This document shows positions 9,650-20,400 of a DNA stretch of 64,000 nt, one piece after another. The DNA is taken from sequence record KP869102. One strand, written 5' to 3'. The number at the start of each line of letters is the position of its first letter. The first letter of the stretch is position 1. Made by a program: the position numbers and the translations under genes. The notes below the pieces were generated by a model, which made no database searches, was not told the origin of the DNA, and was given only the letters and a program-made list of their open reading frames with translations. The stretch is from Escherichia coli O157 typing phage 4.

Positions 9650-10078
9650 TTAACCCTCATCGAAGCAAACCATGGTGTACTCAAGCCCTTGATGGTTAAG
9701 CTTATCTTGTACATACTCCATGTGGCAGTATTTTACAACAGCTCCCTTTTTGCTTCTATCCCACTTGCCAGTGTTCGGATCAAACCGTGGAAAAATGAAC
9801 TTATGATCCTTCTCTCTGAACTTTGGCTTAATGTTTTCAGGCAGATCGCTATAAATAGCTACTGCTTTAGGCCATAGTCCACCCTCACCTTCCAACTGTG
9901 GGGTTGTTCTTCGGAACATAACCACAGAGCTGTGGGGGTCATCAATAATTTTAAGTGGCATCAACTGCAAGAGAAACGACTTGCCAGACCCTGCGGCACC
10001 GCCGATTACCAAAATATCTGCATCGTTTTCGAGGATCATCTTCTGCTTTTCAGAACACGGTCCGTAAATCTTAGACAT
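9650..10078 (-). CDS. terL: terminase large subunit, N-terminal ATPase part (exon 1)
   Basis: Walker A GGAAGSGKS and Walker B VCFDE; ORF ends at a stop right after Walker B. Confidence 0.8.
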   Translation of the reverse strand: MSKIYGPCSEKQKMILENDADILVIGGAAGSGKSFLLQLMPLKIIDDPHSSVVMFRRTTPQLEGEGGLWPKAVAIYSDLPENIKPKFREKDHKFIFPRFDPNTGKWDRSKKGAVVKYCHMEYVQDKLNHQGLEYTMVCFDEG

Positions 10079-11181: not shown

Positions 11182-11258
11182 TGGTCTCCACGGAGTGATT
11201 CGAACACTCGACCTCCTGATCCCAAATCAGGCGCTCTACCAAGCTGAGCTACGCGGAG
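11182..11258 (-). tRNA. tRNA-Pro (anticodon TGG)
   Basis: Cloverleaf folded by hand: C1-G72 acceptor, T-arm GAGTG-TTCGAAT-CACTC, anticodon loop TTTGGGA, CCA encoded. Confidence 0.75.
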
Positions 11259-11269
11259 TATTCATTATT

Positions 11270-11344
11270 TGGTGGCCCTGGGTGGAATTGAACCACCGTC
11301 TGGCGATTATGAGTCGCTTGCTTGAACCTTCCAGCTACAGGGCC
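11270..11344 (-). tRNA. tRNA-Met/Ile2 (anticodon CAT)
   Basis: Acceptor GGCCCTG/CAGGGCC, T-arm GGTGG-TTCAATT-CCACC, anticodon loop CTCATAA, CCA encoded. Confidence 0.7.
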
Positions 11345-11345
11345 A

Positions 11346-11421
11346 TGGTGCTGATGGCAGGACTTGAACCTGCAACCTATTGATTACAAATCAATTGCAC
11401 TACCAATTGTGCTACATCAGC
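11346..11421 (-). tRNA. tRNA-Thr (anticodon TGT)
   Basis: Perfect acceptor GCTGATG/CATCAGC, T-loop TTCAAGT, anticodon loop TTTGTAA, CCA encoded. Confidence 0.75.
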
Positions 11422-11426
11422 AAAAA

Positions 11427-11517
11427 GGTGCTAGGTGATGGAGTCGAACCACCCGAATCGCAATGATAACAGATTTACAGTCTGCCCCGCTACCCCTACG
11501 GAATTAACTCACCTAAA
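11427..11517 (-). tRNA. tRNA-Tyr-like (anticodon GTA), long variable arm; possibly aberrant
   Basis: Anticodon arm GCAGA-CTGTAAA-TCTGT, T-arm GGTGG-TTCGACT-CCATC, variable hairpin; acceptor stem pairs imperfectly. Confidence 0.45.
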
Positions 11518-11643
11518 TACTAATATTTAAATTCTTTTTAAAATAGCTAGTGTTCTCACCACTAACTATGAGGTATCGGTAAAGTGGTTACCGCCACTTG
11601 CCGAAGATTTACTCTGCTAAAGTAAGCTACATTAAAAAGAACT

Positions 11644-11718
11644 TGGCACCCCGTACTGGACTCGAACCAGTGTCAACGGCTTAGAAGGCCGCTGCTTTAT
11701 CCACTAAGCTAACAGGGC
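11644..11718 (-). tRNA. tRNA-Arg (anticodon TCT)
   Basis: Acceptor with two G-U pairs, T-arm ACTGG-TTCGAGT-CCAGT, anticodon loop CTTCTAA, CCA encoded. Confidence 0.7.
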
Positions 11719-11814
11719 ACTGGGTGGCTTTCTTTTACACCTTAGCCGCCAGAAAAGGTGGGAGACCATGTTTACAATATTACACTGTTAAGCAAAGTTT
11801 GTCAAGAAAATATT

Positions 11815-12153
11815 TTAGCTATTGCTAACAGGCTGTATTTCTGTGGTAAACGGCATAAAAGGTGCTGGTTTTTCAGCCTCTTCTACTACCACCTCTTCCT
11901 CTTCACCAAACATCTCATCATATTCTTCCTGCATTCGGTCTGCCTTATCAAGAACATACTCTGCAATGCTTTGACGAATATTTTGTTTGGTTTTCGGGTC
12001 CAACATCAGCTCTCTTAAAACTTTGTGAGCTTCTGGAACCATCGCTATAAAAGATTCCTTCATATCAAGGATGTTCTTCTCTAGCTGAATGGCGTTGGAC
12101 TCCTCTTTCAGAGGTCTGCCTCTACGGCGACGCTTTTTAGTTGTATCCGCCAT
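11815..12153 (-). CDS. putative terminase small subunit / DNA-binding packaging protein
   Basis: 112 aa from ATG at 12153 (GGAGGA RBS); basic N-terminus KKRRRRGRP, acidic C-terminus; upstream of terL. Confidence 0.4.
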   Translation of the reverse strand: MADTTKKRRRRGRPLKEESNAIQLEKNILDMKESFIAMVPEAHKVLRELMLDPKTKQNIRQSIAEYVLDKADRMQEEYDEMFGEEEEVVVEEAEKPAPFMPFTTEIQPVSNS

Positions 12154-12501
12154 GTTTCCTCCATTATCACGTGATAGGTGGATTTTATCACAGCAAATAC
12201 TGATTGTCAAGTTCGCCGCAGGGTGGTGTTCCCTGCGACTTGTCCAGCGTCCTGGACCAGCAAGACCCAACAAGTGGGTTTTCCAGCTATACCCATTACC
12301 GCGCTCAGGCTCGACCTTATTACAGGTTGGCTGGGGTCACATCGTCATGTGCTGGCTGCCCCTACCATTTTAAGTGTGGTGCACTATCAAGCCCTCTAAG
12401 GGGAACTCAGTCTTCTCCGAACCCTGTTTCAAAGCATCCGGAGATAAAGCCATCAAATTCATCTTTAAATTGGATATTCATCATGATACACGAAAACAAC
12501 C

Positions 12502-12744
12502 TCATTGTAAAGCGCAAATAAATAAAACATACTTAATTTGTTTGTTATCAGGCTCAGGGTAGAAGTAGAAGATCTTGCTATCACCGATCTGAACACCACC
12601 ATCCCAACAGCATAGCCCATAACCTGTATTCATACAAGCTAAGTCGTTGGCAAAATCTATTGCATCATCCAGTGCACGAAATTCACCTTCATCTTCTAAA
12701 TAATCCTCATTCATGGAACGAAAAACGAGCTTAACCTTAAACAT
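12502..12744 (-). CDS. hypothetical protein
   Basis: 80-aa minus-strand ORF. Confidence 0.35.
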   Translation of the reverse strand: MFKVKLVFRSMNEDYLEDEGEFRALDDAIDFANDLACMNTGYGLCCWDGGVQIGDSKIFYFYPEPDNKQIKYVLFICALQ

Positions 12745-12820
12745 AGCATTACCTGTAGACCTCGTAAGTTAAAATTGTAGCACATCATATTGCAGATCTT
12801 ATCAGGTAACACTGTTTTTG

Positions 12821-13030
12821 TCAACAGATTCCGGCCTTATCTCGCCTGTCTGCGTATTCTTTAATCGCAACCTCATCTGCATTAGTGACCAGGTCTTCAA
12901 AGTAACTCTCAAGCTCCTCGTCAATGTCAGGAGACCAGCTCTTTTTCCTGTCAGTGTGAATTGCAGACTTGTTGAACTTATTACAGTTCTTTGCTACCGG
13001 GTTATTCATTAAGCGCTCCTCAGCGTTCAT
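12821..13030 (-). CDS. hypothetical protein
   Basis: 69-aa acidic ORF, short overlap with upstream gene. Confidence 0.3.
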   Translation of the reverse strand: MNAEERLMNNPVAKNCNKFNKSAIHTDRKKSWSPDIDEELESYFEDLVTNADEVAIKEYADRRDKAGIC

Positions 13031-13598: not shown

Positions 13599-14102
13599 AG
13601 CTGCCTCCTCTTCAAGTTATAGAAAAACTCACTGTATCGCTTTGTAACGAGCTTTTCTATCAAACTGGTGCGATTGCATTACTTGGTATGGTTTATATAG
13701 CTGTGGAGCGATTTAGGGTCCTTCTTGTCCGTTTCCACACATAAACTTTATCCAAACTCGCGCGGGAGGCTCTCAACCGACTCCTTACGGCGCTGGCAAG
13801 CTTTCGTCGGTGGCCCACATTAGTGCTCGGCCTTTGGCCTGCGCTATCGCTTCGCTCCCACACATGTTAACAGACCTGCATGTATGCACTTCTGTTATTG
13901 TGTGCACTATGGAGGCCCGGCATCTCGCCCCTCGTAGGCGAGTGCCAATGAAGGGCCGACACTACCCATAGTAAGTAATAAATTTAAAACATGGTACTTA
14001 GGATCTAATATATTCTACATAAGTTAAGTATATGTACTTTAGTACCATAAGTACTAGATCTTTTATTTTTTATTATTCAGTTATTTTAGTTATATTCTTT
14101 AT

Positions 14103-14170
14103 GTGTCCGTATCACGGACAGTTAGTGTCCGTATTACGGGCAGTAGTGTCCGTATCACGGACAGTTAGTG
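14103..14170. repeat. three tandem palindromes TGTCCGT-N3-ACGGACA (candidate operator or origin sites)
   Basis: 18-bp inverted repeat present three times at ~21-23 bp spacing; middle copy degenerate. Confidence 0.6.
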
Positions 14171-14238
14171 GACTCTGTTCCAGAGCGAACATAAAACATA
14201 CGAATCCTTATAGTACAGATATTTAAGTTTTTACTGGT

Positions 14239-19117: not shown

Positions 19118-20400
19118 TGCATCAAATCAAAACAACACTGTACGCACTGAACAAAGATGGCAGCTACCAACAGTGGAAAGTATTCACGGATGGTGATAAG
19201 GTTATCGTAGAGTTTGGCAAGCTTGATGGTAAACTGCAATACAAAGAGACGATCTGCACACCTAAGAACGTAGGTCGTGCCAACGAGACTACAGCTGAGC
19301 AACAGGCCGAGCTTGAGGCTATCAGTAAGTGGGAAAAACAAGTCCGTCTGGGGTATGTTGAAAACATGGAAGATTGCGAGCAGGGTGTTGACCTTTTACC
19401 CATGCTGGTGCATGACTATCTGAAGCGTGGCAAGGCACTTAAATTACCTTGCTGGATCTTGCGTAAGTTAGATGGCCTTCGTCTGCTTGTTGTTTTCCAA
19501 AATGGTGAGCCTAAATTTATTTCCCGTGGTAATAAGTCCTACCCTATTCAAGGAAAGCTTTTAGAGCAACTTCGTTCTTTCCATTCTACCACTGGGATTA
19601 AACAACTTGATGGGGAACTATACATTCATGGTCTTCCTTTGCAGAAAATAGTGTCTCTTGCTAAACGGTGGCGCACACAGGAAGAGATTCAGGCCGAGAT
19701 CGATAAAGACTATGAGGCAGATAAAAAACGCCGTCATGCCGCAATTAAGGCAGGCTTATCAACATACAAAAACTTCAACAAGGTAGATATTCCTGTCGAT
19801 GTTGATCCTGTTCGTGATGATTTGCGTTACGGTGGGTACTGTAGCTACGATCTGGAGTATCACATTTTTGATATTCCTAGCGACAAGGTGTGGTGGGATC
19901 CAGAAACAGAGTCTGGACGCTGCAAGGATCTTATGGATGCAGAGGATACCGTTACCACTCTGATGCTTGACCATATCAAGGTTGTTGACGCAGAGCTTGC
20001 GTACACAGTTGATCATTGCGAAGAATCTGTTGGTATATTCATGTCCGAAGGATATGAAGGTACCATTATGCGTAACTTCTGTGGTAAATATGAGTACGGT
20101 CAGCGAACATCTGAAGCATTGAAATGGAAAAAGTTCAACGACGCAGAGGTGAAAGTTATTGACGTTGAGAAAGATAAGAATGATGAAGGTGTTCTTATCT
20201 GTGTTGACAAGGAAGGTATTGTTGTTAAAATGAAGATGAAAGGTACGCACGAGGAGCGTAGCTATGACAGAATGCAGGAAATGATCGGCAAGTTTGTCAC
20301 CTTCAAATATCAAGCAAGGACAGAAGACAACAACTACCAATTCCCTGTCGGTATCTGCGTCCGAAATGTTAACCCAGACACTTGGGAGGTGCTGGAATAA
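19117..20400 (+). CDS. ATP-dependent DNA ligase
   Basis: Adenylation motif I RKLDGLR (KxDG) and EGTIMR motif; 427 aa. Confidence 0.75.
   Translation: MHQIKTTLYALNKDGSYQQWKVFTDGDKVIVEFGKLDGKLQYKETICTPKNVGRANETTAEQQAELEAISKWEKQVRLGYVENMEDCEQGVDLLPMLVHDYLKRGKALKLPCWILRKLDGLRLLVVFQNGEPKFISRGNKSYPIQGKLLEQLRSFHSTTGIKQLDGELYIHGLPLQKIVSLAKRWRTQEEIQAEIDKDYEADKKRRHAAIKAGLSTYKNFNKVDIPVDVDPVRDDLRYGGYCSYDLEYHIFDIPSDKVWWDPETESGRCKDLMDAEDTVTTLMLDHIKVVDAELAYTVDHCEESVGIFMSEGYEGTIMRNFCGKYEYGQRTSEALKWKKFNDAEVKVIDVEKDKNDEGVLICVDKEGIVVKMKMKGTHEERSYDRMQEMIGKFVTFKYQARTEDNNYQFPVGICVRNVNPDTWEVLE

Follow-up and report, generated by a model that had tools for sequence, protein, structure and literature searches.

A GC-rich, non-coding stretch in the genome of Escherichia coli O157 typing phage 4 (KP869102) is predicted to encode a structured, pseudoknotted RNA in which a three-way junction is locked by two further pairings, A-A' and B-B', a fold that has strong comparative support. 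The RNA lies on the minus strand of the window, the 64,000-nt stretch of DNA that was analysed, and the collection of its homologues comprises 78 distinct versions in five groups: type A from T4-like phages, which occurs in a 'full' form and in a simplified Tequatrovirus form; type B from Vequintavirus, the window included; type C from a second group of rV5-like phages of 130–140 kb; type D from Klebsiella and Aeromonas siphophages of about 46–48 kb; and single versions from a contig with affinity to jumbo Salmonella phages of ~350 kb (Munch, for example) and from a GC-rich 158 kb contig (L109). The element is a candidate for a new class of structured phage RNA, and T4 itself is among its carriers. 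If this is true, T4, hundreds of therapeutic-type coliphages (T-even and rV5-like) and Klebsiella phages carry an RNA outside Rfam 15, the tRNA-cluster neighbourhood of which ties it to the long-open question of the non-tRNA RNAs in such clusters, and T4 provides a ready experimental system for the element.

The island and the predicted RNA architecture

The 1.1 kb around the island shows 100% identity to the rV5-like Vequintavirus Escherichia phage JES2013 and ~98% identity to phage rV5 itself and to over 100 further genomes of Vequintavirus. All genes here are carried by the minus strand, in the 5' to 3' order ORF75 (12744–12502), a 32-aa ORF, the GC-rich block, the promoter P74, ORF74 and tRNA genes. 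A first-pass annotation had described a GC-rich, non-coding island at 12160–12500; the enrichment is genuine, but its extent is narrower than claimed, covering 12211–12410 (56.0% GC, against a window mean of 42.6%), with a z-score of 2.8 among 190-nt windows, only 0.2% of which are as GC-rich. The claimed interval as a whole has a GC content of 47.8%, because it also takes in the promoter, the region of the ORF74 5' end and the small ORF, which has 37% GC and forms the AT-richer 5' third of that interval. The plus-strand ORFs reported in three frames are indeed present, as overlapping frames at 12089–12373, 12178–12399 and 12204–12521.

The small ORF (12407–12505, minus strand; MRLFSCIMMNIQFKDEFDGFISGCFETGFGED) matches phrog_6828 (E = 7.4e-9), and its AUG overlaps the stop codon of ORF75 (AUGA). 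It is intact in all seven type B copies examined, where changes are mostly synonymous, and is truncated to 8 aa in type C; judged from its sequence, it is the one part of the interval that behaves as coding. A promoter-like site, TTTACA-17-TATCAT (12483–12511, minus strand), lies upstream of both the small ORF and the RNA, is kept in all type B copies and may be the start of the transcript that carries the RNA. Directly downstream of the RNA is a near-consensus promoter of sigma-70 type with a TG, TTGACA-17-TAAAAT (12182–12210, minus strand), which carries the annotation P74 in the rV5 record. The gene that follows, ORF74 (11815–12153, minus strand), specifies 112 aa with an N-terminal KKRRRRGRP motif and an acidic tail, and is followed on the same strand by tRNA genes for Arg-tct, Thr, Met and Pro (11182–11718), so that the RNA heads the cluster. 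The earlier placement of the island in the 5' leader of a small-terminase (terS-like) gene is therefore only loosely right: the island is upstream of ORF74, but P74 stands between the GC-rich RNA and the ORF74 start, which leaves the island upstream of the promoter and outside the leader that P74 produces. Nor could the identity of ORF74 as a small terminase be demonstrated, as the protein matches phrog_3330 (unknown function), gives no match in a Pfam search and has a single relevant match in the PDB, the small terminase 7joq, which is weak (E = 0.06); the 'terS-like' label thus stands unverified.

The whole structured region of the type B RNA is placed between the 32-aa ORF and the ORF74 promoter, at about 12218–12402 on the minus strand (~185 nt, with approximate ends; 55.7% GC), and includes a conserved block common to types B and C. 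It is predicted to consist of a 5' module, a pseudoknotted core domain and three 3' hairpins, every helix of which was checked against window coordinates; all features below are on the minus strand. The 5' accessory module (12374–12402) comprises a hairpin CCC-UUAGA-GGG, a linker CUUGAUA and a hairpin GUG-CACCA-CAC; it also occurs in type C, where a second copy follows the core. The pseudoknotted domain (12283–12362) has the order A, B, hairpin, A', three-way-junction core, B', with strand A (GGGG) at 12359–12362, strand B (CCAGC) at 12351–12355, the hairpin CACAU-GACG-AUGUG at 12338–12351, strand A' (CCCC) at 12333–12336, directly 5' of the core, and strand B' (GCUGG) at 12283–12287, 3' of it. 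The window also offers B' a nested alternative partner, a second CCAGC immediately 5' of the core.

The core itself (12291–12331) is formed by helix C (GCCA / U-g-GGU, with one bulged G), the P4 hairpin ACCU-GUAAUA-AGGU (12314–12327), the P5 hairpin CGAGC-CUGA-GCGCG (12300–12313) and the junction GUAA (12296–12299). Across lineages, P4 reads ACCU-GURAWA-AGGU and P5 reads CGAGC-NNNN-GYGCG with an internal A-G, and the junction is again GUAA. The three 3' hairpins (12218–12279) are lineage-specific: ACCCA/UGGGU at 12265–12279, which is lost through a 10-nt deletion in one locus (L055), GUCCAG-GACG-CUGGAC at 12242–12257 and GCAGGG/CCCUGC at 12218–12236. The covariance model R1 matches 12289–12333 on the minus strand with 65.2 bits (E = 7e-19), and it finds nothing convincing elsewhere in the window; a second match of 21 bits at 19945–19988 lies antisense within a 427-aa ORF and is probably due to chance.

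Covariation and distribution across phage lineages

Covariation of helix C provides an unbiased test of the fold, because the core flanks lie outside the search pattern. Its three pairs are formed in 47, 47 and 46 of the 47 distinct cores, the first as four pair types (AU 28, UA 10, UG 6, CG 3), the second as five (CG 34, GC 6, UA 5, AU 1, GU 1) and the third as two (CG 34, GC 12). The covariation score of the helix is 0.285 against 0.100 in shuffles, does not exceed 0.069 when the partners are slid, and the fit becomes much worse when the helix is drawn without its bulge. The two pseudoknot pairings are likewise specific to lineage: B-B' scores 11.13 with its own partner against 6.99 with the partners of other lineages, and A-A' 12.67 against 9.00. 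None of 500 shuffles for helix C and none of 2000 permutations for either pairing reached the observed value, counts that overstate significance because related sequences are not independent. B-B' is found as 11 different sequences across lineages with complementarity kept (for example GCCAG/CUGGU, CGC/GCG, ACAC/GUGU, CUCGA/UCGAG, GAGG/CCUC and CGCCGA/UCGGUG), and the variants of A-A' include GGGG/CCCC, GGGAA/UUCCC, GGGAG/CUCCC, AAAGG/CCUUU, AAAGC/GCUUU, AAAGA/UCUUU and GGAAC/GUUCC.

The apparent invariance of P4, P5 and GUAA is partly a consequence of the collection scans, which required them; the evidence free of this pattern bias comes from BLAST matches and from flanking helices. Both hairpins nevertheless covary in diverged tandem second copies, which were found by covariance model or by eye, with an A-U to G-C change in P4 and with GCC/GGC to GUC/GAC, as well as GAGAC/GUCUC, in P5. 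The flanking helices covary across lineages, and in the siphophage form the hairpin loop CGGA pairs instead with a segment 3' of helix C, in a pairing that covaries (CGGUU/AGCCG), and a long outer stem closes the whole RNA. G-U pairs are frequent and are consistent on one strand only, which identifies the RNA strand as the minus strand of the window. When types B and C were aligned with MAFFT, RNAalifold recovered P4, P5 and helix C; this alignment is out of register at A-A' and was therefore excluded from the pair counts. Single sequences, folded with the pseudoknot outside the model, did no better than shuffles: the island has z = −1.6 and the 80-nt domain +0.9, and the same holds for either strand of the island and for the core, so that the case rests on the comparative evidence. 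Between the two candidates that the first-pass annotation had offered for the island, a packaging recognition site and a structured RNA, the second is thus strongly supported by covarying helices, by G-U pairs on one strand and by conservation across unrelated phage families.

BLAST of the island retrieved 679 phage records, of which 118 are full-length Vequintavirus copies and ~560 are of T-even type; the latter match the 45-nt core only (12290–12334), with 91–95% identity, in unannotated DNA. The core lies between an internal-protein gene and vs.8 in T2 and KRT47, and in T4 the element occupies the space between denV and the conserved start codon of vs.8 (about 64793–64938, complement). Among loci retrieved through the vs.8 protein, the element was carried by all seven further Tevenvirinae genera sampled (Gelderlandvirus, with two phages, Karamvirus, Winklervirus, Moonvirus, Jiaodavirus and an unclassified Klebsiella phage), in a non-coding gap of ~170 nt upstream of vs.8, and it lies directly upstream of this gene in 15 of the 15 T4-like loci retrieved in this way. 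The rV5-like phage Av-05 has vs.8 and the element together. A degenerate core pattern yielded 31 metagenome loci and 45 viral loci; a looser one gave mostly chance matches, with 2 of 68 new loci passing the covariance model.

The exact core pattern has no match in 185,579 bacterial and archaeal genomes (GTDB representatives), and the island has none in 5,426 complete E. coli genomes (blastn, E ≤ 1e-5), on which grounds a host origin of the island was rejected. At the level of sequence comparison, this distribution shows an element that is confined to phages and has moved horizontally between unrelated virulent phages of Enterobacteriaceae. That a 45-nt core has stayed almost unchanged while passing between unrelated families points to a strong constraint shared by them, which may be a conserved target in the host. 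The Rfam check proposed in the first-pass annotation found no RNA family in the island: at gathering score, the 4227 families of Rfam 15 gave only the four tRNAs in the whole window, and at E ≤ 10 the island matches in the region 11400–12900 were at chance level (traJ_5 with 17.8 bits against a threshold of 50, and sR38 with 11.9 bits). Literature searches found no description of the element, which may be listed anonymously in a 2023 catalogue of ~10,000 viral candidate RNAs.

Genomic context and possible functions

Every lineage that is not T4-like has the element in or beside a tRNA gene cluster on the same strand. In relatives from Mydovirus and Seunavirus, the syntenic position is taken by tRNA genes and the element is missing; their ORF74 homologues sit among these tRNA genes, and the RNA is not near ORF74 homologues in Mydovirus, Seunavirus or Avunavirus. 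ORF74 was accordingly rejected as the partner gene of the RNA. In type C, the element lies exactly between two strong sigma-70 promoters, TTGACA-16-TATACT and the ORF74 promoter. In L109, a hairpin of −18.5 kcal/mol with a U-tract follows ~20 nt after the element, giving the order element, terminator, gene. The siphophages have, in this order, a promoter, an array of small structured RNA units with a common closing stem, and tRNA-Arg and tRNA-Met, all on the strand opposite to the structural genes; one unit of this array is the RNA described here, as a closed unit ~350 nt upstream of the tRNAs, and another holds T-arm-like hairpins. In T4-like phages, the element sometimes occurs in tandem (upstream of vs.8 in Karamvirus-like phages), there is no terminator, and the ribosome-binding site is immediately preceded by a conserved 3' hairpin.

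Across the lineages, no protein gene is constantly associated with the element, and the downstream genes, which include a terminase-like ATPase, ORF74, tRNAs and a 78-aa ORF, share no function. The T4-like neighbour vs.8 encodes an uncharacterised terminase-ATPase-like protein that has been reported as a candidate Avs2 activator (bioRxiv 10.64898/2026.04.30.721860); against Pfam it gives only weak Terminase_6N and AAA matches. No vs.8 homologue was found in the window, so that this gene, too, was rejected as the partner of the RNA. The annotated T4 vs.8 start (219 aa) reads through the element, the conserved start gives 179 aa, and an in-frame stop is present at that place in 15 of 16 other vs.8 homologues; the annotated start is therefore probably misplaced, in that it runs through the RNA.

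The reading that we tentatively prefer is that the element is a discrete, stable non-coding RNA made together with the tRNA cluster, the invariant junction of which binds a conserved host macromolecule. Under this reading, a putatively abundant and stable RNA would be co-expressed with the phage tRNA cluster and released by its own promoter or terminator, or by processing; it would present the invariant junction to a host partner, most plausibly a protein that takes part in RNA processing, translation or transcription, which might be bound, titrated or redirected, and the outer helices and modules, which vary, would be no more than a scaffold. It is favoured because the element has its own promoter in one lineage, a terminator in another and closed-stem array units in a third, and because there is no common downstream gene. 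The constant place of the element directly upstream of vs.8 in T4-like phages is more leader-like and counts against a stable RNA.

The main rival, which we consider clearly less probable though still to be taken seriously, is a cis-acting leader, that is, an aptamer or a site bound by a protein or by RNA polymerase, controlling downstream genes of the same transcript (ORF74 and the tRNAs in the window, vs.8 in T4-like phages) as a riboswitch, an autoregulatory operator or a put-like processive antiterminator, with which RNA polymerase reads through terminators. The element is always upstream of, and co-oriented with, the downstream genes; its linkage to vs.8 is 100% over seven Tevenvirinae genera and Av-05, whatever gene lies upstream; and the tandem copies before vs.8 recall those of some riboswitches, just as the strongly conserved junction with a variable periphery is typical of aptamers. 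The T4-like 3' hairpin next to the ribosome-binding site and the order of element, terminator and gene in L109 point the same way. However, types B and C have a strong promoter that separates the element from ORF74, so that most ORF74 transcripts would lack the element, and a leader has to be reconciled with downstream genes of no shared function and with a siphophage copy that is closed off amid similar units well upstream of the tRNAs. No covarying alternative pairing with the ribosome-binding site or a terminator was found. One candidate for such a pairing, the conserved CCUCUCC stretch of a CU-rich hairpin in T4-like phages, does not covary with the variable ribosome-binding sites and was rejected as an anti-RBS sequence.

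We think it unlikely, though conceivable, that the invariant junction defines a new catalytic (self-cleaving) or small-molecule-aptamer RNA of virulent enterobacterial phages; in the aptamer case, a possible ligand would be a nucleotide-derived signal of host immunity, sensed or soaked up by the RNA. More specifically, a new class of self-cleaving or processing ribozyme that cuts a polycistronic precursor, for example to release tRNAs or to separate mRNAs, appears improbable. The compact pseudoknotted fold of the element with its invariant unpaired nucleotides, its helix order as in HDV-like ribozymes and its association with tRNA clusters, which recalls that of theta ribozymes in phages (PMC10879173), speak for such an RNA, but most lineages have U in place of the catalytic C required as the first J4/2 nucleotide, the equivalent of L3 is variable with no P1.1, conservation resides in the P4-equivalent domain that is dispensable in HDV-like ribozymes, and no Rfam ribozyme family matches even at E ≤ 10.

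It is scarcely credible that the island is a coding region read from a plus-strand ORF, or a functionless GC-rich remnant of, for example, decayed tRNA genes. Some GenBank records annotate a 'hypothetical protein' here and related genera have tRNA genes at the syntenic position, but the plus-strand ORFs have no PHROG match, and no frame on either strand stays open across homologues. All three antisense frames are open only in Vequintavirus, the copies of which differ by indels of 3, 4 and 10 nt, lengths that are not all multiples of three, and the other lineages have 1-nt indels inside the conserved core. The earlier view of the island as non-coding is upheld by these results, since no conserved frame was found that could represent a coding homologue, and the plus-strand 'hypothetical proteins' are probably spurious. 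As for a remnant, tRNA models give no match, ARAGORN and the Rfam models finding neither tRNA nor tmRNA in 12200–12500, and a decayed sequence would not hold a 45-nt core at 91–95% identity across families with its stems covarying. Equally implausible is a DNA-level signal, whether a pac or cos packaging site, a replication origin or a recombination hotspot: the large-terminase gene lies ~2 kb away in rV5-like genomes, the terminase-ATPase-like gene vs.8 adjoins the element in T4-like phages and the patch is GC-rich in an AT-rich genome, but compensatory changes keep RNA pairs rather than DNA sequence, G-U pairs would be A-C mismatches on the other strand, the island has no direct or inverted repeat arrays, and the core sits at unrelated map positions, from ~46 kb siphophages to the contig related to ~350 kb jumbo phages and often inside tRNA arrays; the packaging site that the first-pass annotation had considered is thus not supported.

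Comparison with known RNAs

Several resemblances of short stretches were followed or noted. A tmRNA mimic, suggested by presumed word matches behind the tag stop codons and within PK2, was rejected, as the element aligned locally with E. coli ssrA no better than shuffles did (z −1.7 to +1.9). Presumed likenesses to the 16S 530 loop (GCGGUAAU), to the SRP Alu domain (CCUGUAAU, GCGCGGU), to the anticodon and D arms of tRNA-Tyr and to lambda boxB are taken as leads only.

The closest architectural parallel is with the HDV-like ribozymes, including theta ribozymes, which share the nested double-pseudoknot order P1-5', P2-5', P3 hairpin, P1-3', P4 domain, P2-3'; the covariation-supported order A, B, hairpin, A', domain, B' of the element corresponds to it. 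Theta ribozymes adjoin tRNA genes in phages, and HDV-like ribozymes have their catalytic cytosine at the first J4/2 position, where a C-to-U change inactivates them (PMC10879173). In the element, by contrast, the first nucleotide after helix C' is U in T4-like and most Vequintavirus copies (UUUACAU, UAAAUA, UAUA) and C in a few. The equivalent of L3 is GACG in types B and C, GAUUCU in Tequatrovirus and a 35-nt hairpin in other T4-like phages; this loop has no conserved complementarity to the 2 nt after A', so that P1.1 cannot form. A further difference is that conservation centres here on the three-way junction equivalent to P4. The matches listed at E ≤ 10 included no Rfam family of HDV type (e.g. 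HDV_ribozyme). The mostly U-bearing J4/2 position, the variable L3 loop and conservation in the P4-equivalent together place the element outside the HDV-like family.

With riboswitch aptamers and the put RNAs of HK022, the element shares a conserved junction or core, variable outer helices and a location ahead of genes that are read in the same direction; in some of its lineages, the element is present in tandem or has a terminator behind it. It differs from riboswitches in that no ligand, covarying expression platform or common downstream gene was found for it. The put RNAs consist of two simple stem-loops and lack both a three-way junction and a pseudoknot. The pRNA of phi29 is a phage RNA built around a three-way junction that works with the packaging ATPase, and the T4-like copies of the element adjoin the terminase-ATPase-like gene vs.8. 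However, pRNA was not among the matches listed at E ≤ 10, and lineages B–D lack vs.8; T4 packaging in vitro is not known to need an RNA.

Among orphan structured RNAs, ROOL and GOLLD are often encoded by phages or prophages near tRNA genes; they differ from the element in being several-fold larger (about 500–800 nt), in occurring in Gram-positive and other hosts and in forming separate Rfam families, which have no match here. T4 species 1 and 2 (rnaC, rnaD) are, like the element, non-tRNA RNAs co-oriented in or near a phage tRNA cluster. There is no homology between them and the element, the best match of R1 to the T4 tRNA region with filters off having 9 bits (E = 0.46), and the T4 element itself lies ~6 kb from that region, upstream of vs.8. 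As stable RNAs within the T4 tRNA cluster, rnaC and rnaD are nonetheless the nearest analogue for the genomic setting of the element and for the mode of expression proposed for it here.

A second GC-rich island and palindromes near ORF79

A second GC-rich non-coding island (GC about 53%) separates ORF77 from ORF79, the gene for a GntR-like regulator, at 13690-13975 on the minus strand. Its predicted folding energy was -106.3 kcal/mol, markedly lower than the -90.1 kcal/mol of shuffled sequences (z = -3.1), and a search of Rfam returned no match to it. The island is 90-100% conserved in 118 Vequintavirus records, the only ones in which it was found, and is mostly left without annotation there, with a 56-aa 'ORF78' being called at this position in the related phage rV5. 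This island may represent another structured RNA. Directly downstream of ORF79, a palindromic motif (ACUGUCCGUGAUACGGACAC-like) occurs three times on the minus strand at 14100-14190, and the three sites look like operators.

Gene calls and record labels

In T4 (L012), the 219-aa CDS annotated for vs.8, the gene directly downstream of the RNA element in T4-like phages, starts within the element itself (L012 2793-2940; NC_000866 about 64792-64939). Since translation from the conserved start codon gives a protein of 179 aa, and 15 of the 16 other homologues carry an in-frame stop upstream of this start, the N-terminal extension of T4 vs.8 is probably an annotation artefact. Within the window, an unannotated minus-strand ORF of 32 aa (12407-12505) matches phrog_6828 and is predicted to be translationally coupled to ORF75 through an AUGA overlap; in the second rV5-like group (type C), this ORF is cut to 8 aa (MKDEFDGF), with a promoter in place of its 3' part. 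The large-terminase gene is split (9650-10078 and upstream), with three pieces joined in the rV5 record and only the 142-aa first piece forming an intact ORF in the window. A degenerate tRNA-like remnant (11437-11501, 22.9 bits) lies near the site of a tRNA-Ser annotated in the rV5 record. Separately, the name 'Campylobacter phage' is given to 18 phage database records (MG0656xx) with C. jejuni as their stated host, and in this part of the genome their sequences share ~98% identity with rV5-like coliphages, which suggests mislabelling or contamination.

Further copies of the element and small-RNA arrays in siphophages

The RNA element is present in two tandem copies upstream of vs.8 in four Karamvirus-like contigs (L058, L082, L087 and L088); in the second copy, the hairpin is simplified and P5 has diverged. 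The covariance model of the 45-nt core gave a weak second match in the window at 19945-19988 on the minus strand (21 bits; E = 3e-4 by a rough calibration), antisense within a 427-aa plus-strand ORF, and this match is probably due to chance. In Klebsiella/Aeromonas siphophages (L085 1720-2620; also L118 and L049), the strand opposite to the structural genes carries a promoter with small structured RNAs arrayed downstream of it; these units have one closing-stem 'frame' in common (AGUGCUCUU..GUUGUG ... CACAAC..AAGAGCA). One unit, not called as a tRNA by ARAGORN, contains two T-arm-like hairpins, and the array is followed by tRNA-Arg and tRNA-Met.
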